A model generated the notes under the pieces. The model did not search any database. It saw only the letters and a list, made by a program, of their open reading frames with translations, and was not told the origin of the DNA. The position numbers were made by a program, and so were the translations under genes. Of a stretch of DNA of 58,576 nucleotides, positions 10,845 through 28,517 are shown piece after piece. The DNA is taken from positions 1 to 58,576 of the forward strand of contig JAUSIT010000038.1 of NCBI GenBank assembly GCA_030647965.1, given 5' to 3'. Every line of letters begins with the position of its first letter. Position 1 is the stretch's first letter. The stretch comes from Nanobdellota archaeon (GTDB lineage Archaea > Nanobdellota > Nanobdellia > Pacearchaeales > GW2011-AR1).

Positions 10845-11705
10845 ATGTATTTTCCATGGAATGATTATGAAGAAATAGCAAGTAATAGGAAAAATACTCT
10901 TCAAGTTTTTATAACAACAAGATGTAATTTGAAGTGTAATGGGTGTTTTGCAAAAAATGTAATGGGTGAAAAAGCAAAAGATATTTCTCTTAAAGAATAT
11001 TCTTTAGTAATTGATGATTTTCTTGAAAAAGATGGAAAACAAATAAATATTCTTGGTGGAGAGCCTTTACTTCATCCAAAAATAAGGGAAATTGTTCAAA
11101 TTAACCGAGATAAAAACATTAAAACAACTATTTATACAAATGGCTCTTATTTAAACAGGTTTAATGAAAAAGATTTTGAAAATGCAAAACTTCGGCTTTC
11201 CTTATATTGTAAATCAGGAAAAAATAAGAGTTTAGATTCAATGATTAAAACAGATTTTCCAATAGATGTCTGCTTTATGGTTTCAAGCAAAACTACAAAA
11301 AAAGAGCTTGTTGAAACAGCAGATGAACTTGAAAAAAATTACAATACTAATGTATTTTTTATTTCAAGTATAAGAGAATTAGACAATCCAAGAAAAGAAT
11401 TTTTTGATGATACTGAATTAAGTATGAATGTTTTAGCATATAAAGAGCTTGTTCATGAATTTTTGCAAGAATATAAAGGAAATATGGAAATACATATATC
11501 AAAAAGAGGAGTTTTTGAAAGCACAAAAACTATTGCAGGAAATAAATGTAAGTTTGCAAATTATTTTATTGGTGGCAAGATAATCCAATGCCCTTATGAT
11601 ACTATAAATCTGAAATTCCAGAAAGATTATTTGTTTGATACAAGAAACTGCCAGCAAAACAACAGCTGTTTAATGAGTAAGATTGTTGTTAAGAGAAAAA
11701 GTTAG
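10845..11705 (+). CDS. Radical SAM protein with a C-terminal Cys cluster
   Basis: CNLKCNGC (CxxxCxxC) near the N-terminus. C-terminal CKFANY...CPYD...CQQNNSC suggests an auxiliary-cluster domain. Confidence 0.7.
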   Translation: MYFPWNDYEEIASNRKNTLQVFITTRCNLKCNGCFAKNVMGEKAKDISLKEYSLVIDDFLEKDGKQINILGGEPLLHPKIREIVQINRDKNIKTTIYTNGSYLNRFNEKDFENAKLRLSLYCKSGKNKSLDSMIKTDFPIDVCFMVSSKTTKKELVETADELEKNYNTNVFFISSIRELDNPRKEFFDDTELSMNVLAYKELVHEFLQEYKGNMEIHISKRGVFESTKTIAGNKCKFANYFIGGKIIQCPYDTINLKFQKDYLFDTRNCQQNNSCLMSKIVVKRKS

Positions 11706-11712
11706 TGATTGT

Positions 11713-12021
11713 TTAAACAATAAACCGCTCGGGATTCTCTTCTCTAACTTTTTTTAAACATTTAATAAAAGTAGTCATTGTTCCATTACATTCTTCTTTT
11801 AAATATTCTTCAAATTCTTCTTTATTATTTGGAGCAAAATGATGGCAATCTAAACATAAAGTAATTAAATTTTCAAGTTCATCTTTTCCTTGAAAAGTTA
11901 AAGGAATAATGTGGTGGGCTTCTAAAAATTTTTCAGATTTATCTTGAATTTTACATTTTTGACAGGTAAAATCATCTCTTTCAAATGCTTTTTTTCTTAA
12001 GACACTATTTCTTTTCTTCAT
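11713..12021 (-). CDS. HNH endonuclease
   Basis: CQKC...AHHIIP...NLITLCLDCHH is an HNH motif with zinc-binding cysteine pairs. Overlaps the 3' end of the recombinase gene by 17 nt. Confidence 0.75.
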   Translation of the reverse strand: MKKRNSVLRKKAFERDDFTCQKCKIQDKSEKFLEAHHIIPLTFQGKDELENLITLCLDCHHFAPNNKEEFEEYLKEECNGTMTTFIKCLKKVREENPERFIV

Positions 12022-12853
12022 TTTTCATTAAATTATCTAAGGGGGATGAAACTTTTTTCATTTCTTCTGATGAAATATGGGTATAAATTTGAGTTGTTGA
12101 AAGGTCTGCATGGCCTAATAATTCCTGAATCATTCTTATATCTGTTCCTGATTCTAATAAGTGAGTTGCAAAGGAATGTCTTAGTGTATGAGGATGAACA
12201 GATTTTTTTATTCCTGCTTTTTGCGCTACGTTTTGAATAATCTTTTGCATGTTTCTTGAAGATAATTTTCCATTTGGGCCTGTGAAAAGATATTCTTGAT
12301 TGTTTTGTTTTTGTAATTCTGCTTGTTCTTTTAAATTATCTGCCAAGAAATTAGGAATATTAAAATTCCTATCTTTTTTTCCTTTAGCCTGCCTTACATG
12401 ACCTATTTTTTCATCAAAATCCATATCCCTCATTTTTAAATTAATTAATTCTGAAACTCTAAAACCACATGCATAAATTAAAGAGAGCATTAACTTGCTT
12501 TTTTTATTTACGGCCGACTCAAGCAGTTTTCTGACTTCGTCTTTAGATAAAACAACAGGTATTTTTTTCTCTCGTTTTGGTCTTTTTATTCCTGCAGTTA
12601 TATCTTTGTTTAAGAGGTTAGAATAGGCATATTTTACAGCAGCAAGAAACAAGATAGAAGACATAGAAGATTTTTCTGCTAATTTTTCTGCCATGAAAAG
12701 CTTAATATCGTCTTGAGTTATCTCTTCAGGATTTTTCTTGGAAAAATCAATAAGTTTAGAGTTAGAAGAAAGATAGTTTCTAATAGTATGGGGGGAGTTT
12801 TTAGAGATTTTTAGTTCTGTTTCGATTTTTTTTAAGAAAACCTCTTTTTCCAT
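12005..12853 (-). CDS. Tyrosine recombinase, XerA/XerC/XerD-like
   Basis: GFRVSEL...HPHTLRHSFATHLLESGTDIRMIQELLGHADLSTTQIYTH carries the R-H-R-Y catalytic signature. 282 aa, Xer-sized. Confidence 0.85.
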   Translation of the reverse strand: MEKEVFLKKIETELKISKNSPHTIRNYLSSNSKLIDFSKKNPEEITQDDIKLFMAEKLAEKSSMSSILFLAAVKYAYSNLLNKDITAGIKRPKREKKIPVVLSKDEVRKLLESAVNKKSKLMLSLIYACGFRVSELINLKMRDMDFDEKIGHVRQAKGKKDRNFNIPNFLADNLKEQAELQKQNNQEYLFTGPNGKLSSRNMQKIIQNVAQKAGIKKSVHPHTLRHSFATHLLESGTDIRMIQELLGHADLSTTQIYTHISSEEMKKVSSPLDNLMKNEEKK

Positions 12854-12907: not shown

Positions 12908-13399
12908 TTAATAGCTTCCTTTAATATCTGTCCTTAATTTCTTTTCTTGTGGGTTAAATCCTTTTTCTCTAAGAAGATTAAACATCTCTTCTTTAAATTG
13001 AAGATTATGAAGCATTTGATGATGATTTGGACATAAGCCTATCAAATTATCTTGAGAATTATTTTTTCTATTTTGATCAAGATGATGTAAATCGACTACT
13101 TTATCAAATCCACAAATAACACATTTTTCTGTGATTTTTTTATAGATTTCATAATCTAAACCATAAAGTTGCATTTGATTTCTAGCTTTTTGATAGTCTA
13201 AAAAATAAGTAGTATTATAACATCCCCCACATAACCCTTTACTTTTTAAAAACATTAATCTTTGACATCTTTTACAAACTTTCTTTTTTCTAGGCCATTT
13301 AAATTTTCTATAACAATTATGACAAATTTCTCCAGTAAATCGATTGTTTTCTTTTCCGCATTTTGGACAAACTTTCCCCTGTAATAATTTTATGGACAT
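12908..13399 (-). CDS. Zinc-finger / HNH nuclease-like protein
   Basis: Several CxxC pairs, then CVICG...DLHHLDQNRKNNSQDNLIGLCPNHHQMLH (HNH pattern). Confidence 0.6.
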   Translation of the reverse strand: MSIKLLQGKVCPKCGKENNRFTGEICHNCYRKFKWPRKKKVCKRCQRLMFLKSKGLCGGCYNTTYFLDYQKARNQMQLYGLDYEIYKKITEKCVICGFDKVVDLHHLDQNRKNNSQDNLIGLCPNHHQMLHNLQFKEEMFNLLREKGFNPQEKKLRTDIKGSY

Positions 13400-13503: not shown

Positions 13504-13671
13504 ATGAAACTACAAAAACAAAAATCAGATTATAAAAGAGGCTACTCCAAATATGTAGTCGTAATTCCAGAAGATTTGATTAAGAAGGCTGAATTAAAAG
13601 AATCTGATGAATTAGTTGGAGAAGTTGAAAAACATAGAATAATACTTAAGAAAGTTGAAAAAATGGTCTAA
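13504..13671 (+). CDS. AbrB/SpoVT-like small DNA-binding protein (55 aa; not in the supplied ORF track)
   Basis: My translation is MKLQKQKSDYKRGYSKYVVVIPEDLIKKAELKESDELVGEVEKHRIILKKVEKMV. The YVVVIPEDLIKKAELKESD...V pattern resembles the AbrB/MazE looped-hinge-helix fold. Confidence 0.45.
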   Translation: MKLQKQKSDYKRGYSKYVVVIPEDLIKKAELKESDELVGEVEKHRIILKKVEKMV

Positions 13672-13762
13672 ATTGACTAAAACCCTGATTTCTAAACGTT
13701 CTGATAATATAGGTTATCAGAACCTTTTGGGTTATTGAGGGATTTTTGAGAGAAAAATAATA

Positions 13763-14080
13763 TTAATGTCTCCAAAATTGACTATCCCTACCTTTGTCAC
13801 ATTCGTCTTCTGTTTCTGTGCTCTTAGGTAAGCTTTGTGAAAGAACTTCTAAATCCTTAAGATGTTTTTCTAGAGGAATAGGAGTATAATCTAATGTTAA
13901 AAAATATGCTTTAAAATAAACAGTAGGAGGATTTCCTGTGATAATTATGCTCTCTTTTCCGTCAGGTTGATTATTTAAAGGAGTATATTTATTACCTCTT
14001 GAATCTACAAAAGTTCTTCCTTTAATTCCGCCATTTAAAAGATAATATGCTAAATCTTTAGTTAAAGAAGTTTCTGACAT
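13763..14080 (-). CDS. QSxPKST-family small protein, paralog 1 (tail type RDSxF-W/Y-RH)
   Basis: Shares SQSLPKST and the C-terminal tail TEDE..GRDSQFWRH with paralog 3. The N-terminal part is unrelated to the other paralogs. Confidence 0.55.
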   Translation of the reverse strand: MSETSLTKDLAYYLLNGGIKGRTFVDSRGNKYTPLNNQPDGKESIIITGNPPTVYFKAYFLTLDYTPIPLEKHLKDLEVLSQSLPKSTETEDECDKGRDSQFWRH

Positions 14081-14123
14081 ATTTTAAATTAATAAATAGT
14101 ATTTTTAAAGATTATTGTGATTT

Positions 14124-14468
14124 TTAGGCAAAAGGTTTATTTGGATTGCTTGGACCATAAGGATCATTAAAAACAGTTAGTGGTTCAATTGTGCTCTTAG
14201 GTAAGCTTTGTGCAGAAACCTCTAACCCTGATTGTGTTTTTTCAATTTCTTGAATCTCTAAATCAGTAAGACGCTCATAACCAGCTAATTTATCATATCC
14301 TAAGATAATTGTTTCTCTATTATATTTATTATCTTTATTATCTTCTAAAACAAGTACATTAAAACCATGATCATGAATCTCTAAAACTTTTATAATCTTG
14401 AAAGAATGTTTCTTTTGATAATAATTTCCTTTAACTGCATTCGATATATCTTCATATATATTTGTCAT
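14124..14468 (-). CDS. QSxPKST-family small protein, paralog 2 (tail type DPYG)
   Basis: AQSLPKST, then ..FNDPYGPSNP, similar to the paralog 4 tail. Confidence 0.55.
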   Translation of the reverse strand: MTNIYEDISNAVKGNYYQKKHSFKIIKVLEIHDHGFNVLVLEDNKDNKYNRETIILGYDKLAGYERLTDLEIQEIEKTQSGLEVSAQSLPKSTIEPLTVFNDPYGPSNPNKPFA

Positions 14469-14519
14469 GTTATTTTTTAATTAACTTGATTTTTAAATAT
14501 TATTGTGATTTAACATTAA

Positions 14520-14747
14520 TTAATGTCTATAAAATATACTATCTCTTCCTTCTCCACCATACACTTCATCTTCTGTATCTGTGCTCTTAGGTGAGCTTTG
14601 TGCAAGAGGTATATCTTCATAGTGATCTTTGATTAAAACTTCTTGAGGGGTTTTTTCTCCTGAATATCTTATTAACATTTTAATTTCTTCAGGATTGTCA
14701 TTTTTAAAATCAGAAAAACAATGTGCCACCCACACTTTGATTGGCAC
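14520..14747 (-). CDS. QSxPKST-family small protein, paralog 3; probably the 3' part of a gene interrupted by a repeat insertion
   Basis: AQSSPKSTDTEDEVYGGEGRDSIFYRH. The first 11 codons (MPIKVWVAHCF) are encoded by repeat sequence 14714-14747. Confidence 0.45.
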   Translation of the reverse strand: MPIKVWVAHCFSDFKNDNPEEIKMLIRYSGEKTPQEVLIKDHYEDIPLAQSSPKSTDTEDEVYGGEGRDSIFYRH

Positions 14748-14825
14748 TTGTTTTTGGGATGCTCCGAAATTAAAACCAGTAAATTACAACCCAATTCTAA
14801 AGAATTAAGTTTTAATTTCAGACAT
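14714..14825 (-). repeat. HP-A composite repeat: foot hairpin plus second hairpin with a T-run
   Basis: Minus strand reads ATGTCTGAAATTAAAAC...GGTTTTAATTTCGGAGCATCCCAAAAACAAGTGCC...GGCACATTGTTTTT. Homologous to 48989-49114 and 53292-53456. Confidence 0.7.
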
Positions 14826-14934
14826 AACCAATAACCTGATATTGAGCACCATCAAAAATACTATCTATAAACTTTTGATGAATAATAGAATTAATTCCTT
14901 GGTTTTTTATAATATCTTGTAAATTGTCTGTCAT
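14818..14934 (-). pseudogene. 38-codon ORF, probably the 5' part of interrupted paralog 3
   Basis: My translation is MTDNLQDIIKNQGINSIIHQKFIDSIFDGAQYQVIGYV, stopping inside the repeat foot. Conceptual removal of 14714-14825 joins it in frame to 14520-14713. Confidence 0.4.
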
Positions 14935-14942
14935 TTTGATTT

Positions 14943-15458
14943 TTAGTATTTTTTCTCTATTCTTGGGCCATAATCCCTATCTTTTGAATGAGAAGGAACT
15001 TTAGGTCCTATAAATGTTTGATTAGATTCTTCAGATATTTCTAAGTTTAAAGTGGGATTAGAATTTTCAAGGGCTTTTAATAATGATTCAGGATTATATT
15101 CATTAGGGATTCCTAAGTTTAATGTTGACCCATGATTAATAGCATAAGGATCGTCTGCAACAGTAAATGATTTATATGATTTTTCTGTGCTCTTAGGTGA
15201 GCTTTGTTCAGGCCCCAATACTAATTCTGTTAAACCTTGTTCCATCCAGTTAGCTAATTTATGAAGTTCAGAGATCTTTTCTTCTGGATTTTTAATTGAA
15301 ATAAACCTCTTATCATAAAATCCATTCTTGACTATTGGATAAGTTGTTCCATTAGGTTTATGAAGTATAAAATTATTATCTTGTGTTTCCCCTTTATAAA
15401 TTACTATTTCCTCCTGTGGAGTATCAAATTTATAAAAACCTGGTTTGTCTATGGCCAT
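14943..15458 (-). CDS. QSxPKST-family small protein, paralog 4 (long tail, DPYA)
   Basis: EQSSPKST, then ..ADDPYAINHG. The promoter-like ATCACAATAATCTTTAAA box upstream is shared with paralogs 1-3. Confidence 0.55.
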   Translation of the reverse strand: MAIDKPGFYKFDTPQEEIVIYKGETQDNNFILHKPNGTTYPIVKNGFYDKRFISIKNPEEKISELHKLANWMEQGLTELVLGPEQSSPKSTEKSYKSFTVADDPYAINHGSTLNLGIPNEYNPESLLKALENSNPTLNLEISEESNQTFIGPKVPSHSKDRDYGPRIEKKY

Positions 15459-15684
15459 AAATAATTTATTAATTTTGATTATTTAAAGATTATTGTGATT
15501 TAGGAGTGATTTAGGGAAATTTTTGAGTAATTTTTGCCTAGCGGCCTACTTTTTTTAGCAGTGTCTGGGGTTTTGTTCACTTTGGTTAGCAAAGTGCAAT
15601 GATAATAAAAATAAATATGAATAAAATATGAAAAGAAAAATAAAGAAAAGAAAAAAAGAAGTAGAAAAATAATTGCAATTATTT

Positions 15685-15882
15685 TTATCTATTAAATAAA
15701 GCCATTATTAAGCTTACAATTGCGCCTATAACTACAATCCAACCTGCAATTTGAGTTACAATTGTAGGAAGTATTGGGATAGTTAGTGTATTGTATATCA
15801 TTCCAAAGCCAACTGCAAGTGAAACTAAAATACCTGTTAGCCATACAACAATATTCAAAACTCCTGAATCTGCTTTTGCCAT
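15685..15882 (-). CDS. Small integral membrane protein (two TM helices)
   Basis: 65 aa, almost entirely hydrophobic. Strong GGAGGT Shine-Dalgarno-like sequence 7 nt upstream of the ATG. Confidence 0.55.
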   Translation of the reverse strand: MAKADSGVLNIVVWLTGILVSLAVGFGMIYNTLTIPILPTIVTQIAGWIVVIGAIVSLIMALFNR

Positions 15883-15917
15883 ATTTTACCTCCTTTTTTA
15901 ATTTATTTTTTATTAAT

Positions 15918-16208
15918 TTATTCTTTTTTAGTTCCTGGTGCAAAACTTAAAAGAGCAAGTGAAATAAAAAAAGAAAGCCCAAACACAGTAATATATGTTT
16001 TCAAAAGGCTTGGACTATAGCCCAAATATACTCTTTCAACATTTAGATCTAAAATTGAATCAGGATTTAGCGTACAAAAAGTCCATGCATAGTCTGGATT
16101 TGGAACAGAAGGTGCTGTTTGACATGGGATAAAACTTGAAAATAAAGATATTGAAAACACAGCTAGTGCAAAAAATAATGAAGCAATCACTCTATTTTTT
16201 AATTTCAT
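15918..16208 (-). CDS. Membrane/secreted protein with N- and C-terminal hydrophobic segments
   Basis: N-terminal signal-like VIASLFFALAVFSISLF and C-terminal FGLSFFISLALLSF. Confidence 0.45.
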   Translation of the reverse strand: MKLKNRVIASLFFALAVFSISLFSSFIPCQTAPSVPNPDYAWTFCTLNPDSILDLNVERVYLGYSPSLLKTYITVFGLSFFISLALLSFAPGTKKE

Positions 16209-16492: not shown

Positions 16493-16727
16493 CTTAAACA
16501 GGCTTAAACAGCCAGTGTGATTTTTTAAACAGGTGTGGCTTATTTTAGCTGTTTAAACAGCTGTTTAAACAAATTATCTTTTTTATTTATTAAAACTTAA
16601 ACAGCCAAAGTTTTATCGACTATAAATGTGCTGTTTAAACAGCAAACAGCTGTTTTAAACAACCTTAAAAAAGATAAAAAATAGGCCTTTTTTGAGGTTT
16701 AAAAAACTAGGGCTGTTTAAACAGCCG
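16493..16727. promoter_or_regulatory. Cluster of GCTGTTTAAACAGC palindromes and TTAAACAG half-sites upstream of a wHTH gene
   Basis: Perfect 14-bp palindromes at 16548-16561, 16630-16643 and 16712-16725, plus at least five half-sites. The same motif occurs at 9602-9621 and 10750-10770. Confidence 0.55.
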
Positions 16728-16764: not shown

Positions 16765-17376
16765 ATGTTTGGATTTTTCAAAAAAAACAAAGATGTAAGC
16801 AAATTAAAAGAAGAGGTATATCATTCTTTCAATTCTGTTAAAAAAGATATAAATAAAGTAGGTGAATGGGTTGCGCATTTCGACGCAAAACATAAAAATT
16901 TTGATAAAGAACTAGTTGAATTAAAAGACCAGCTTTATTACATTAGGGAAGATCTAAATGAGATAAAAGACTTTGTTTCTTTCTTTGGACCACAGTTAAC
17001 TAAACAGCCGTTTAAACAGGCACAAACAGGTAGGGATAAACAAACAGCTGTTCAAGCTGTTCAAACACCTGTCCAAACGGCTGTTCAAACAGGCATTTTA
17101 TCTGGTTTAACTGTTATGGAAAGGGCAATTGTGTTTGCTTTGTTAAACTCTGATGTAAAGCTAAGCTATGAAGATTTAGCAGCTGTTTTAGGGAAAGATA
17201 AGAGTACTATCAGGGGCCAGATAAATGGGATAAGACAAAAGAGTGAAGGCTTAATTGAAGAGTCAATTGAACCAAATGGTAAGAAAAGGATCTATATTCC
17301 AGAGAAAATGAAGGAATTTGTGCTCAAAAGTGTAAAAGTGAGAGTTAGACCTGATAAAAGGGCTAAAAAATACTAA
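16765..17376 (+). CDS. Coiled-coil / winged-helix DNA-binding protein
   Basis: N-terminal coiled coil, a QTAVQAVQTPVQTAVQT repeat linker, then C-terminal LTVMERAIVFALLNSDVKLSYEDLAAVLGKDKSTIRGQINGIRQK (wHTH-like). Confidence 0.55.
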   Translation: MFGFFKKNKDVSKLKEEVYHSFNSVKKDINKVGEWVAHFDAKHKNFDKELVELKDQLYYIREDLNEIKDFVSFFGPQLTKQPFKQAQTGRDKQTAVQAVQTPVQTAVQTGILSGLTVMERAIVFALLNSDVKLSYEDLAAVLGKDKSTIRGQINGIRQKSEGLIEESIEPNGKKRIYIPEKMKEFVLKSVKVRVRPDKRAKKY

Positions 17377-17832: not shown

Positions 17833-18636
17833 TTATAACTCTCTAAGCCTCATTATCGTCGATAAACTAGCAATTTTCTTAAGATCCGGGGAAATTTTTA
17901 AAGTAATAGTCTTATTGTTCTGTTTTAGCTTTAAAATAGGGATTCCTTTTTTCTCTAGCTTATTAACATAATCTCTTATTGAAGATTCGCTTAAATTAAG
18001 ATTATTTGCTATGATCTTATATGTTACTTCGCCTATATTTTGCTCTTCTAGGCCATAAAGCGTTGAAAATATAAGCATTTCCTGAGGAGTTAGCTTTTTG
18101 AACTTGATTCTTATGCCTTTTTTAATATGATCAAGAGAATCTAGTATTTCTCTTGCTTTTTCAAAGTCATTTATATCTTTTGACGAGGAAGAATGTGAAC
18201 TAGATGTAGAAATAGGGGGTGAGATAATGGAATTACTTAAACTGATTAAAGAGGCCATATTTATAGGATTTTCTTGTATTTTTGAAGTAATTTGTGTCTG
18301 TTGGTTTGTCTGTTGGTTTGTCTGTTGGTTTGTTGGTTTGTCTGTTGGAACCCCCCTATTTCCTGTGGAAAGGAGCATATTTTGCTCTTCTAGGCTATTT
18401 AGGGAGTGTTGATGTGTTGGAATATGTGTTGGAGTGGAAATAGGGGGGTTGTTTTGAGGTATGGTTTGGGTTGGATGTGTTGGAGTCTGAATTATTGGTT
18501 GAACTAACTGTTTTTCTTTGATTTGTCTTAGATCTAATCTAATTTCAGATAAGTCTGTTTTTAAAAATTCTAACTCTTTTTTAAGATCAAATATATCTTC
18601 TTTTATTTTATCAAAAGCTTGTTTTATAGGATCCAT
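17833..18636 (-). CDS. Coiled-coil / winged-helix DNA-binding protein (same architecture as 16765-17376)
   Basis: N-terminal coiled coil, low-complexity TNQQTNQQTNQQ repeats, then C-terminal LTPQEMLIFSTLYGLEEQNIGEVTYKIIANNLNLSESSIRDYVNKLEKKG (wHTH-like). Confidence 0.55.
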   Translation of the reverse strand: MDPIKQAFDKIKEDIFDLKKELEFLKTDLSEIRLDLRQIKEKQLVQPIIQTPTHPTQTIPQNNPPISTPTHIPTHQHSLNSLEEQNMLLSTGNRGVPTDKPTNQQTNQQTNQQTQITSKIQENPINMASLISLSNSIISPPISTSSSHSSSSKDINDFEKAREILDSLDHIKKGIRIKFKKLTPQEMLIFSTLYGLEEQNIGEVTYKIIANNLNLSESSIRDYVNKLEKKGIPILKLKQNNKTITLKISPDLKKIASLSTIMRLREL

Positions 18637-18677
18637 AGAAAATTAAGAATCCCTTAATTTATAATCTTAATGATAGT

Positions 18678-18953
18678 TTATTGTATCTGTTGGTTTGAAT
18701 AAGCAGAGTGTACTTTATTTGAAAGTCTCCATCTTGTTCTTCTAGAATAAACTATTCCTTTTTCATTTTTATCTATTTTAATAACAAGATCTTTTTTTAA
18801 TAATTCTTCTAAAAGAGCTTTAATAAATTCTTCATCTCGTGCAAGTTCTTTTGCAATGTCTGATATAAAAATCTGTTTAGGAAATACTTGATATAAATAA
18901 AATAAAATTTGCTCTGAAATCTTATCTTTTTTTTCTTTACTTATAGTGGGCAT
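18678..18953 (-). CDS. Small winged-helix DNA-binding protein
   Basis: ISEQILFYLYQVFPKQIFISDIAKELARDEEFIKALLEELLKKDLV is a wHTH-like pattern. Confidence 0.5.
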   Translation of the reverse strand: MPTISKEKKDKISEQILFYLYQVFPKQIFISDIAKELARDEEFIKALLEELLKKDLVIKIDKNEKGIVYSRRTRWRLSNKVHSAYSNQQIQ

Positions 18954-25210: not shown

Positions 25211-25642
25211 TTACTTCGACTCTGGTTTTTCAGAATTTGCTTGAAATCTTGGAAAGCTAATATGATAGGGAAGCCCAAAATCATCCTCTAATTGTAGTGC
25301 TTTTAATGAACATTTTTGTAAGATAGTATTTAGAATAATTATTCTTAATTTATCTGGAACTTGTTTAAGATCTTTCCATTGAGTTAGTGTTTCTTTTGAA
25401 AGTTGATCATCTACTAAAAATATTAAAAAACCTTCAAAATAAATATTAGCAAAATTAGTATAGTCAAGAGTAAATTTAAAATCAAATTTTAAAGCTTCTT
25501 TATCAGTAAAATCTAATTTATTTTTTTCAACAGAAGTTATATTTATATCTGATTTTGCTTCTAATTTTCCTTTAAAATCAGGAAATTTTTTTACATTTAG
25601 ACTAGTATATCCAAAACCTAAAAATTTTATTTCTTGTTCCAT
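25211..25642 (-). CDS. Hypothetical protein upstream of Fic (weak SecB-like pattern)
   Basis: 143-aa ORF. The C-terminal ILNTILQKCSLKALQLEDDFGLPYHISFPRF loosely recalls the SecB C-terminal region; this is not a supported assignment. Confidence 0.35.
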   Translation of the reverse strand: MEQEIKFLGFGYTSLNVKKFPDFKGKLEAKSDINITSVEKNKLDFTDKEALKFDFKFTLDYTNFANIYFEGFLIFLVDDQLSKETLTQWKDLKQVPDKLRIIILNTILQKCSLKALQLEDDFGLPYHISFPRFQANSEKPESK

Positions 25643-25682
25643 TTTTAATTGAATAATTGAGGTTTTTTAAAGTTTGTTGTGA

Positions 25683-25778
25683 TTGAAATTAAAATCAGCA
25701 AAATTATATTCAATTTTAAATAATAGAATTTTAATTTCAGAGCATCCCAAAAACAAAGAGTAGTTTTCATTGTTTTTC
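25683..25778 (+). repeat. HP-A composite repeat
   Basis: TTGAAATTAAAAT...ATTTTAATTTCAGAGCATCCCAAAAACAAAGAGTAGTTTTCATTGTTTTT. Confidence 0.55.
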
Positions 25779-26874: not shown

Positions 26875-27220
26875 TAACCCCTCACCCTATGGTTTCTTAT
26901 GGAAAAGATTTATAAAGGAATTTCAAAATTGAAAATGTTGAATTTTTATTTATAAATATATATATTATATATTATATATATTAATATATAATATAATATA
27001 ATAATATATAATTAAGTATCTATATTTTAATTTTTTAAATTTTTGTTAATTTTTTACGTCAGTATATTTAGTAAATTACTAATAATACTACTTTAATACA
27101 CTTATTTTTTAAAATAATATTCTAGATATGAAATAAGGGGGTGAGGGGTTGCTAAATATTTTTATTAGTTAAAATAAGTAAAAAAGAGCTATTTTAAGTT
27201 CCATATGAAATAAAGGTTAG
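26875..27220. other. Candidate replication origin (oriC): inverted ORB-like boxes flanking an AT-rich unwinding region
   Basis: 26875-26907 TAACCCCTCACCCTATGGTTTCTTATGG is an inverted match to 27125-27152 GATATGAAATAAGGGGGTGAGGGGTTGC. A mini-box CCATATGAAATAAAGG sits at 27201-27216. (TA)n-rich tract at 26941-27120. Directly upstream of orc1/cdc6. Confidence 0.6.
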
Positions 27221-27299: not shown

Positions 27300-28517
27300 A
27301 TGGTGATAGGACTAGATAAAATATTCAATTCTGCAATAAATAACACTTTATTTAAAAATAAAGAGGTTTTACAGACAAATTATACTCCTGAGTCAATACC
27401 TCATAGGGATAAACAAATAGAACAGATTGCAGGGATATTAGCTCCTTTATTAAGAGGTGAAAGATGTAGTAATTTATTTTTATATGGTAAAACTGGCACA
27501 GGAAAGACTCTTTCAATGCAATATGTTCAAAATGAATTATTAAGAAAAGCAAAAGAAATGGGATTAGAATTAAGAATAATTTATTTAAATTGTAAATTAA
27601 AAAAAGTTTCAGACACAGAATATCGGATTTTAGCTGCTTTAATAGGTAAATTAGGTAAAGAGGTTGCTGCAACAGGATTACCTACTGATCAAGTTTATTC
27701 TAAGTTTATTGAGATAATCGATGAAAAAAAACAATTGGTTGTTATTATTTTTGATGAAATTGATCAGGCTATTAAAAAAATTTCAGATAGTTTTTTATAT
27801 AATTTAACTAGGTTAAATTCAGAACTATCTAAATCTCAAATAAGTATTATAGGTATTTCTAATGATATTACTTTTTTAGAAGATATAGATCCTAGAGTAA
27901 GAAGTTCTTTAGGTGAAGAAGAACTTGTATTTCCTCCTTATAATGCATTACAATTACAAGATATATTAAATGAAAGATGTGCTATTTCTTTTAAAGAAAA
28001 TGCTGTTGATGCAGGAGTTATTGCAAAATGTGCTGCTTATGCTGCAAGAGAGCATGGGGATGCAAGAAGAGCTTTAGATTTATTAAGAATTGCAGGAGAA
28101 CTTTCTGAAAGAGAGGGAAATTCTAATGTTGGATTGAAATATATTGATTTAGCTAATGATAAAATGGAAAAAGACAAAATTTTAGATATTGTTGAAACTC
28201 AACCTAAACAATTTCAACTTGTTTTATATGCTATTTCAGAATTAACAAAATCTCAAAAAAATAATAAAGAATTAAATAAATTTTTTACAGGAGATGTTTA
28301 TGATGTTTATAGGGATATTTGCATTAAAACAAAAAATGAGTATTTAACTCAAAGAAGAATTTCTGATATTATTGCTGAAATGGATATGTTGGGTTTGATA
28401 AATGCTAAGGTTATTTCAAAAGGGAGACATGGTAGAACTAGAGAAATAAAATTTGCAATACCTATAGGTTTATTTGATAAAATTGATGCTATTTTAAAAG
28501 AATCTTTAGGTTTGTAA
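27300..28517 (+). CDS. cdc6: Orc1/Cdc6 replication initiator
   Basis: Walker A GKTGTGKT, Walker B IIFDEID, sensor region GDARRALDLL and a C-terminal winged helix. Confidence 0.9.
   Translation: MVIGLDKIFNSAINNTLFKNKEVLQTNYTPESIPHRDKQIEQIAGILAPLLRGERCSNLFLYGKTGTGKTLSMQYVQNELLRKAKEMGLELRIIYLNCKLKKVSDTEYRILAALIGKLGKEVAATGLPTDQVYSKFIEIIDEKKQLVVIIFDEIDQAIKKISDSFLYNLTRLNSELSKSQISIIGISNDITFLEDIDPRVRSSLGEEELVFPPYNALQLQDILNERCAISFKENAVDAGVIAKCAAYAAREHGDARRALDLLRIAGELSEREGNSNVGLKYIDLANDKMEKDKILDIVETQPKQFQLVLYAISELTKSQKNNKELNKFFTGDVYDVYRDICIKTKNEYLTQRRISDIIAEMDMLGLINAKVISKGRHGRTREIKFAIPIGLFDKIDAILKESLGL

Follow-up and report, generated by a model that had tools for sequence, protein, structure and literature searches.

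Four small open reading frames (ORFs), p1 to p4, lie in tandem on the minus strand of contig JAUSIT010000038.1 (GenBank assembly GCA_030647965.1) of a Nanobdellota archaeon, and each of them carries the peptide QS(L/S)PKST, encoded by a 22-mer with a single variable base. A first-pass annotation of this DNA had described the four genes as unrelated N-terminal heads joined by a fixed linker to two kinds of short tail. The question raised by the locus is whether the 22-mer is kept for that linker peptide, for the RNA, or for the DNA itself. The whole contig of 58,576 nucleotides was analysed and is referred to below as the window. Comparison of the sequences strongly supports conservation of the 22-mer as DNA and not merely for its peptide. 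The 22-mer belongs to a family of repeats, here designated R, which is very probably a functional element at the DNA level. The best explanation as a whole, to which we give an even chance, is that R is a cis-acting DNA element which punctuates an islet of small genes, is translated in the window, and is likely the site of a DNA-binding protein encoded at the locus.

Exact matches to the 22-mer (TGTGCTCTTAGGTRAGCTTTGT) were found four times on the plus strand of the window, starting at 13817, 14190, 14580 and 15186, with none expected from 100 shuffles. The four minus-strand ORFs and three of the 22-mer positions had been placed correctly by the first-pass annotation; the first copy, which it put at 13827-13848, lies at 13817-13838, and beside the four coding copies a fifth, non-coding copy of the family at 15574-15595 had been missed. 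When seven copies were aligned together with their flanks, identity began and ended exactly at the borders of the 22-mer, in agreement with the diverged flanking DNA and the shared motif codons noted earlier. Across eight coding copies in five assemblies, the codons were all identical, with no synonymous variation. These codons are rare in the genome: AGC, which is used twice, makes up 5.5% of the serine codons and AAG 14% of the lysine codons, and the probability of exactly these codons being used for the peptide is approximately 6e-5 per copy. The sole variable base of the 22-mer is a second codon position (TTA/TCA, Leu/Ser). Among 38 copies of R, conservation amounted to 90% at first, 74% at second and 84% at third codon positions.

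An exhaustive search with p4 revealed true distant homologues of its head (P0122, P0124, P0125 and P0127); a word-indexed homology search returned p4 itself only, and a profile of the p4 family brought up no further members. A comparison of motif codons between homologues had been proposed in the first-pass annotation, and in these true head homologues the codons did not vary. The heads share 29-40% identity in protein and 55-61% in DNA and keep the same codon at 55-68% of the conserved residues; for the residues encoded by R, codon identity was 6/6, 4/4 and 4/4. The exact 22-mer could also be found in a p4 homologue on a 518-bp contig (L054), and a perfect R is retained in the decayed p3. The exact 21-mer occurs in two more Woesearchaeota metagenome-assembled genomes (L001 and L002). 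In L001 the head ORF is out of the R frame and terminates at a TAA within the 22-mer, and in L025 (at 4770) a second copy of the first 16 nt, a left/right hybrid half-site, lies in non-coding DNA. In a metagenome scan that left the four synonymous positions free, the real relatives (L019, the same as L001, and L025) carried exact copies only; the other seven of the nine matches were rejected as chance hits, being GC-rich or having nearby stops, and none was a synonymous variant of a real copy. Viral contigs contained no exact 22-mer. The degenerate pattern matched there a scaffold-like protein from a tailed phage (GGAQSSPKSTEN), along with scattered chance hits, and all of these were set aside as unrelated. 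This Q-rich scaffold-like protein (IMG/VR contigs L008, L009, L011-L013 and L015; for example L012 2606-3448) has the C-terminus ...GGAQSSPKSTENQMW, with two synonymous differences from the 22-mer, and was judged a chance match because portal and capsid genes adjoin it.

These results bear directly on the reading in which QS(L/S)PKST functions as a peptide, whether as linker, processing site or targeting motif, and the sharing of codons is incidental. The in-ORF copies of R are all in one frame, as such a reading would have it. The 22-mer class is fixed at positions where the wider R family varies. Most of these positions are non-synonymous in this frame, and peptide selection or a specialised recogniser must therefore add to the constraint. 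Some tails look conserved as well. They fall into the two classes reported earlier, with GRDSxF(W/Y)RH at the C-termini of p1 and p3 and TVxxDPY common to p2 and p4, and measure 9-80 aa. An in-frame indel of 6 nt separates the tails of p1 and p3, whose stop positions coincide; those of p4 and P0127 are homologous, being alike at the C-terminus, and a weak EPL...DPY/GPY theme is common to p2, p4, P0125 and P0127. Judged from these alignments, the p1/p3 tails and the p2/p4/P0127 tails look selected. Against the peptide stand the rare shared codons without synonymous variation, the copies that are non-coding or out of frame, the intergenic position of R in most genomes, and the homologue that stops within the motif. 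The tails also differ among the p4 head homologues, and P0122 is without any. No protease, shell or secretion partner was found nearby, and neither the heads nor the tails of p1-p4 matched any Pfam or NCBIfam family. The cargo or targeting, polymorphic-toxin and PKST-processing architectures that had been suggested are accordingly not borne out. The array differs from polymorphic toxins and contact-dependent inhibition systems in that here the heads vary, the tails are short, and no Pfam/NCBIfam domain or nearby secretion gene is present; it differs from encapsulin-type cargo in the differing classes of its tails and in its neighbours, which are membrane-protein, helix-turn-helix (HTH), HNH and XerA genes. 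Peptide selection as the sole explanation, with a probability close to nil, is already contradicted and survives just as an added layer, and the proposed constraint at the nucleotide level has held. Probably, the peptide and the tails are also under some selection, layered over the constraint on the DNA.

The R family could be followed beyond the window with an anchor that is independent of the 22-mer, the conserved 203-aa winged HTH (wHTH) gene 'QTAVQ', through which loci were fetched from a dozen other genomes. The QTAVQ family comprises more than 2,100 proteins at 60-70% identity in Nanoarchaeota/Woesearchaeota-type assemblies. R was present in 15/15 sampled loci with the QTAVQ gene, most of them fetched via QTAVQ, and also in L054, which was fetched via the p4 homologue. 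Each sampled locus contains two to five copies, almost all on the strand of the islet genes. R is 22-25 bp long and partly palindromic, its conserved positions being roughly AC.AA....ACC..AGTG.A.A. and its consensus roughly ACTAAGsTTACCTWAGTGAACA, with positions 1, 2, 5, 10-12, 15, 16, 20 and 22 nearly invariant. Inverted repeats of the pattern GCAC-www-G, five bases, C-www-GTGC are common among the copies, with w triplets that match in differing ways; 2 to 9 of the 9 arm pairs are formed, and just 5-6 in the window 22-mer. With a weight matrix at ≥18 bits, 45/45 copies in the 15 loci lay between the QTAVQ gene and a dif-like site and none in approximately 185 kb outside, where four copies of L029 scored as outside lie in fact in the L029 islet, which was undelimited in the scoring. 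Five shuffles of the window gave no copies at the looser threshold of 16 bits.

The islet so defined has a regular order: two small membrane-protein genes, R, then one to five units of promoter, small gene and R, then a dif-like palindrome, and often another R. It adjoins three conserved HTH genes, adjacent in every locus of sufficient length, and is usually near xerA. R is intergenic in the majority of genomes, where a copy comes after each small gene, and it also stands upstream of membrane-protein, HNH and recombinase genes. The gene of p4 type is in every case the first after the non-coding copy called U. The same 22-mer is found behind at least four unrelated head types. Within the window, however, the heads are not all unrelated as the first-pass annotation had it, since weak similarity outside the motif connects p1 with p3 and with p2.

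The translation of R in the window can be understood from its reading frame. In the generic R, the QS.PK frame (...CCT AAG TGA ACA) meets TGA, so the upstream gene stops inside R, and P0122 ends in this manner with QSQPK-TGA. Variants with TGC or AGC stay open and give QSQPKCT, QSLPKCT, QSQPLCK, PSQPLCT, QSLPKST or QSSPKST; at least 12 in-ORF copies were counted in nine genomes, all in one frame. The window variant is open because of a T>A change (TGC/TGA to AGC). Each gene therefore continues through R as QS(L/S)PKST into approximately 20 more codons, ahead of the next promoter. The 'fixed linker' is thus a DNA site, R, in translation, and the codons that follow it up to the next stop make up the 'tail'. 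A comparable juxtaposition was seen in L036 (5443-5811), where an islet protein contains VQTPVQTV, a translated repeat word of the CAGCTG type, directly before the R-encoded PSQPLCT, so that two repeats stand back to back.

Within the array, p1, p2 and p4 are real genes, since open frames of 105-171 codons have a chance of about 1e-4 to 3e-7 at 27% GC; for the ORFs of the array overall the range is 1e-3 to 3e-7, which likewise makes a chance origin of such lengths implausible. In contrast to the tandem of four genes first described, the array probably consists of three intact genes and one remnant; p3 was read as a decayed copy because it has a GTG start, is missing the promoter box, and cannot be united by any single frameshift with the 38-codon ORF between it and p4. 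AlphaFold2 without alignments gave pLDDT (predicted local distance difference test) values of 35 for p4 and 44 for p2, and the models were unusable. The four genes are tandem units (promoter, head, R, tail), most likely born of unequal exchange between R copies, by which the R-to-promoter spacing is reproduced in each new unit. Unequal exchange accounts most simply for the window array whether R is an operator, a recombination junction or an accessory site for Xer, the three roles considered below.

A role in the RNA, as a hairpin, processing site or small-RNA target in the mRNAs, is compatible with the sense orientation of all copies, with the good folding of some palindromic relatives (z -3 to -6), and with the Y position, which would preserve a G-U or G-C pair in a 4-bp stem. 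However, the four 22-mers of the window fold like shuffles (z -0.35, -0.44, -1.14 and +0.02), the arms pair very unevenly between copies, Rfam gave no match even in sensitive mode, and no complementary copy of the 22-mer exists elsewhere in the window. The RNA-level site offered as one option by the first-pass annotation is thus highly improbable.

The promoters of the islet provide the context for a role at the DNA level. An 18-nt box (ATCACAATAATCTTTAAA), earlier ascribed to all four genes, occurs upstream of p1, p2 and p4 only and not of p3. Alignment of the R-to-ATG segments of 11 units revealed a conserved A/T-rich element, approximately AAATAATTAAAAA, about 24 nt ahead of every ATG, and the box is the local form of this ordinary archaeal B recognition element/TATA (BRE/TATA) promoter. 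A distance of about 24 nt between box and ATG fits the expectation for leaderless archaeal mRNAs. A box-like ATCACAACAAACTTTAAA with two mismatches was also observed at 25666-25683, just ahead of the minus-strand gene at 25211-25642, which suggests that the box is a general promoter type in this genome. A scan for bacterial sigma-70 promoters and terminators, uninformative for an archaeon, flagged just the dif-like palindrome, as a hairpin.

Under the reading that we favour, R would be the recognition site of a DNA-binding protein encoded at the locus, with the three adjacent conserved HTH proteins as first-choice candidates. The R copies would then serve as operators or architectural sites, each promoter having one upstream of it and the dif-like site having one at about 95 nt. 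On the sequence comparisons, such a role comes close to an even prospect. It is in keeping with the position of R upstream of promoters, its restriction to the islet and the adjacency of the three HTH genes, as well as with a layout that is stable over deep divergence, islets that are identical between strains, and the fixed position of the p4-type gene.

Several observations weigh against it, besides the frozen positions of the 22-mer class and the tails that look selected. R-to-ATG distances are mostly 91-133 nt, with a second group of 40-60 nt, so that spacing differs among genomes (40-133 nt overall, without helical phasing; the window distances are in Table 1), and in each locus one R has the dif-like site, instead of a promoter, in front of it. 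The window QTAVQ protein shares 46-51% identity with those of L001, L002 and L025, which have the exact 22-mer, but 62-67% with its counterparts in genomes carrying other R variants, a distribution that is not predicted by a simple co-evolving operator. The occurrence of one 22-mer behind unrelated heads would be more natural for a junction, and the likeness of R copies within a genome (similarity 0.80, versus 0.72 between genomes; 0/5,000 permutations) and the L025 hybrid also fit recombination.

Auxiliary operators in coding regions are known from bacteria, where lac O2 lies within lacZ and gal OI within galE. R resembles these in being a short, partly palindromic site in an ORF, conserved as DNA, with a second copy upstream of the promoter and regulator genes adjacent. 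It differs in standing at every gene boundary of the islet and beside the dif-like site, in being always in one frame and near the 3' end where it is within an ORF, and in its promoter spacing, which varies among genomes; its binder is a candidate only. The features of the window are collected in Table 1.

Table 1. Coordinates of R copies, promoter boxes, genes and sites around the islet in the window
Feature	Position	Strand	Description
HNH endonuclease gene	11713..12021	-	about 100 aa; overlaps 3' end of xerA; same pair in L033/L034 (L033 1180-2333, overlapping or abutting)
xerA	12005..12853	-	archaeal XerA tyrosine recombinase, 282 aa
Double zinc-ribbon + HNH-like protein	12908..13399	-	163 aa; homologues in L029 and L040 islets (57% identical to each other)
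Small ORF	13504..13671	+	55 aa; converges on dif-like site
dif-like palindrome	13697..13724	.	CGTTCTGATAA-TATAGG-TTATCAGAACC; 11-bp arms, 6-bp spacer, 1 mismatch; 39 nt past p1 stop; candidate XerA site
p1	13763..14080	-	105 aa; head + QSLPKST + acidic tail, C-terminus GRDSQFWRH
R copy 1	13817..13838	-	exact 22-mer ACAAAGCTTACCTAAGAGCACA, in frame in p1; about 95 nt from dif-like site
Promoter box of p1	14104..14121	-	BRE/TATA; ends 23 nt before ATG
p2	14124..14468	-	114 aa; head + QSLPKST + tail IEPLTVFNDPYG...
R copy 2	14190..14211	-	exact 22-mer, in frame in p2; p1 ATG 109 nt downstream
Promoter box of p2	14492..14509	-	1 mismatch
p3	14520..14747	-	probably decayed/truncated unit; GTG start, no promoter box; QSSPKST + tail, C-terminus GRDSIFYRH
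R copy 3	14580..14601	-	exact 22-mer, C variant, in decayed p3; p2 ATG 111 nt downstream
38-codon ORF	14818..14934	-	between p4 and p3; starts 8 nt past p4 stop
p4	14943..15458	-	171 aa; head with distant homologues P0122, P0124, P0125, P0127 + QSSPKST + 80-aa tail
R copy 4	15186..15207	-	exact 22-mer, C variant, in frame in p4
Promoter box of p4	15482..15499	-	BRE/TATA
R copy 5 ('U')	15574..15595	-	non-coding generic variant ACTTTGCTAACCAAAGTGAACA; 7-bp-stem palindrome, fold z -3.07; p4 ATG 115 nt downstream
Two small membrane-protein genes	15685..16208	-	65 and 96 aa; conserved islet boundary
'QTAVQ' wHTH protein	16765..17376	+	203 aa, conserved; anchor for locus sampling
Two further conserved HTH genes	17833..18953	-	267 aa with PTDRQT repeats; 91-aa wHTH; candidate R-binding proteins

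A recombination hotspot for domain shuffling, also raised by the first-pass annotation, corresponds to a reading in which R is an att-like site-specific recombination site and the islet is a cassette array beside Xer/dif. Exchange in R would insert, delete or duplicate units of promoter and head, carried out by XerA, an R-adjacent serine recombinase or an HNH nuclease; as R is in frame, exchange would splice any head to whichever tail follows. This reading is a close and serious rival of the operator, though less likely than it. One R stands at each gene boundary, all copies are direct, and the count of R is that of the genes plus one. Islet content varies among genomes between conserved flanks, the identical 22-mer follows unrelated heads (with an out-of-frame join in L001), the genomes with the exact 22-mer do not form a clade, and R copies are homogenised within genomes. 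The hybrid half-site of L025 points in the same direction, as does a direct duplication of an R-containing segment of approximately 80 bp in L027 (7160-7228 and 6285-6353, 875 bp apart), which brackets two small genes and looks like the footprint of an insertion or unequal exchange. XerA lies within 1-6 kb in about half of the loci, HNH genes are nearby, and a serine recombinase gene abuts R in L002 and L055.

Rearrangement between strains was not observed, however. Seven samples (L041-L047) sharing one QTAVQ protein were 99.5% identical, with small indels only and the same islets, and no strain-level cassette polymorphism was present in the two multi-contig groups examined; other same-species contig sets had the same islet genes by gene calls, without base-level alignment, and the window's own population is a single contig. 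The hotspot idea draws on the occurrence of the 22-mer on at least four unrelated heads and in genomes that are not one another's closest relatives, but no rearrangement at the population level was seen. The fixed position of the p4-type gene and the homologous p4/P0127 tails indicate vertical descent and not shuffling. R is unlike the dif-like site and attC, and its symmetry, with 8-9 bp arms and a 5-nt centre, is atypical for the cores of known tyrosine or serine recombinases and is lost in the 22-mer. There is no consistently adjacent recombinase, and L025, L030 and L036 have none within several kb. In the most far-reaching form of this reading, which has a slightly lower probability still, the R boxes would be the crossover sites of an undescribed archaeal gene-module system at the Woesearchaeota-type DPANN Xer/dif locus, distinct from integrons and dif modules. 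Small units of promoter plus gene would enter, multiply and pass from one lineage to another at the 22-25 bp site, and, as the site is in frame, each event would splice a new N-terminal domain onto the resident C-terminal peptide.

The serine recombinase gene (259-260 aa) lies just beyond the dif-like site in L002 (2971-3753) and L055 (5941-6720; also L056). Its ATG is preceded in these two lineages, at approximately 20-35 nt, by a copy of R or of an R-like sequence, an arrangement that resembles res/tnpR or hix/hin. A tRNA fragment or the att site of an integrated element was also considered for the 22-mer; by eye it misfits the geometry of the tRNA anticodon arm, and an integrated element was rejected because outside the window the exact 22-mer is single per contig, so that there are no flanking pairs.

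Known gene-shuffling systems provide further comparisons. Phage Mu uses Gin and gix to invert tail-fibre segments through in-frame recombination sites. In-frame sites are likewise used by the R64 shufflon, where Rci acts on sfx in pilV (PMC11852207, PMC5430464). The likeness to both consists of an asymmetric repeat of approximately 20 bp that joins, in frame, one protein part to alternative parts, with a recombinase gene beside the array. Nevertheless, all five R copies in the window and nearly all elsewhere are direct and not inverted, each R unit is a complete gene with its own promoter, the adjacent recombinase is a housekeeping-type XerA, and the L041-L047 contigs (seven samples, as against one contig for the window population) show no alternative arrangements. 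On plasmids and chromosomes of Acinetobacter, Xer-dependent dif modules have 28-bp dif-like sites (11-6-11) at their borders, and these sites alternate in orientation (PMC6449649, PMC13141974, PMC12907356). Small gene modules, short repeated delimiters, an Xer/dif context and content that varies between replicons are common to both systems, but R matches neither the arms nor the geometry of dif, and there is one dif-like site per locus. Integrons, which have been reported in Archaea too (PMC9668308), likewise have small ORFs in the same orientation, separated by repeats that are homogeneous within a genome, beside a tyrosine recombinase. Here, in contrast, the recombinase is XerA without the IntI-specific domain, every islet ORF has its own promoter, and R is 22-25 bp long and conserved as sequence, whereas attC is 55-140 nt long, folded and conserved as structure. 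No attC-like structure was matched in Rfam at gathering or sensitive settings, with the coverage of attC in Rfam unconfirmed and no dedicated attC model run. The islet is neither an integron, nor a dif-module array, nor a shufflon, and no description of R or of the islet locus was found in the literature searched.

The remaining role is that of accessory sites for the Xer/dif reaction, in which a protein bound about 95 nt from the core, and in many loci beyond it as well, would shape the synapse and the copies ahead of other genes would be secondary. At the plasmid sites cer and psi of bacteria, ArgR and PepA sites act as Xer accessory sites. Nearly all loci have a single site of the dif-like consensus TTCGCACAA-N6-TTGTGCGAA, 30-50 nt past the last islet gene, even without an adjacent xerA. 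The last R is 46-132 nt from it in 10/14 loci, and a further R lies beyond it in L025, L027, L033, L035, L038 and L055. Archaeal dif has the 11-6-11 geometry, and in Thermococcales it lies in the termination region and not beside xerA; conserved repeats flank it and a partner protein has been suggested (Cortez et al. 2010, PMC2958812). The present locus resembles that system in its XerA equivalog, in its single 11-6-11 palindrome with arms like those of bacterial dif (..CGCACAA / TTGTGCG..), and in having R beside the site, comparable to the repeats of Cortez et al. (PMC2958812). It differs in the placement of the site: in about half of the loci xerA is found 1-6 kb away, and a probable oriC lies at a distance of approximately 13 kb. 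Against an accessory role, most R copies are separated from the core by hundreds of bases and follow the promoters instead, no far-side R was found in the window, and, with a probable origin at that distance, the core may be something other than the chromosome's dimer-resolution site. An accessory function as the main role of R is improbable on this balance, though less so than one in the RNA.

In the coding-type R, the left arm T(T)GCACAA (13836-13843, 14209-14216, 14599-14606 and other loci) equals the dif-like arm TTCGCACAA minus one base, and could be a XerA half-site or a coincidence. The right half of R does not match the dif-like arm, and the window's own dif-like arms (TTCTGATAA) are without the left-arm match. 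Similarity of the whole 22-mer to the dif-like site, 12/26 positions in a hand alignment, was not above expectation and was discarded.

The recombinase of the window could be assigned with profile models. The 282-aa protein passed the archaeal XerA equivalog NF040815 (243.7 bits, cutoff 220) and failed the integron-integrase models TIGR02249 (218.6, below 265, as a match in two stretches) and NF011946 (145.5, below 435). Its best matches among solved structures were XerA, 5hxy and 4a8e. The 55-aa ORF that converges on the dif-like site was sub-threshold against a putative addiction-module antidote family (22.4 bits, cutoff 55.9).

The window is archaeal chromosomal DNA. It carries genes for S4, S11, RpoD, L13 and S9, followed by Lhr and a metallophosphatase and further on by Cdc6 and the small subunit of PolD. 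The order of ribosomal-protein operon, Xer-type recombinase, variable small genes, QTAVQ, HTH, wHTH, Lhr and metallophosphatase is conserved in the loci fetched from other genomes, and a rare mobile element or provirus was rejected because the neighbours form this conserved synteny block. Inverted G-string repeats (GGGGGTGAGGGG), resembling origin recognition boxes, lie at 26876-26910 and 27116-27150 around a (TA)n tract (26946-27010), upstream of Cdc6 (27300-28517) and PolD. This region, at 26.9-27.15 kb, is probably oriC and is approximately 11-13 kb from the islet and the dif-like site. For the dif-like site, a distance of approximately 13 kb from there speaks against a position at the terminus, although the chromosome is unassembled.

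Two further repeats were observed around the conserved HTH genes. The palindrome TTTAAACAGCTGTTTAAA occurs in three copies upstream of the 203-aa gene (16547-16574, 16630-16643 and 16712-16725, with 82-bp spacing) and at 11661-11673; its word is repeated inside the 203-aa gene (17036-17092), where it encodes QTAVQ...QTAVQT, and the family is also present in L001, L002, L025, L029 and L033. It may be a second translated cis-element. An island of 16-18 nt, TGTCTGTTGGAACCCC(CC), is identical in four assemblies (window 18339-18356, L001 4481, L002 6134 and L025 2446). It lies in the 267-aa HTH gene, where it encodes GVPTDRQT beside the PTDRQT repeats (a 12-nt DNA repeat), and is a G+C-rich run that is unusual at 27% GC.

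The array is an instance of dual coding, in which an apparent conserved peptide linker is a cis-acting DNA site read through by the ribosome, and it calls for caution where small proteins of compact genomes are annotated from motifs. The analysis further brings to light a conserved locus in a large uncultivated archaeal lineage, made up of xerA, a dif-like site, an islet of fast-evolving small genes punctuated by R, two membrane proteins and three HTH proteins. A probable origin lies about 10-13 kb away, and the anchor gene has more than 2,100 homologues. If R is a recombination junction, the islet would be a new type of archaeal gene-capture platform. If R is an operator or an Xer accessory site, it would offer a handle on the control of Xer recombination or of local transcription in DPANN archaea, which to our knowledge are without FtsK-type control.

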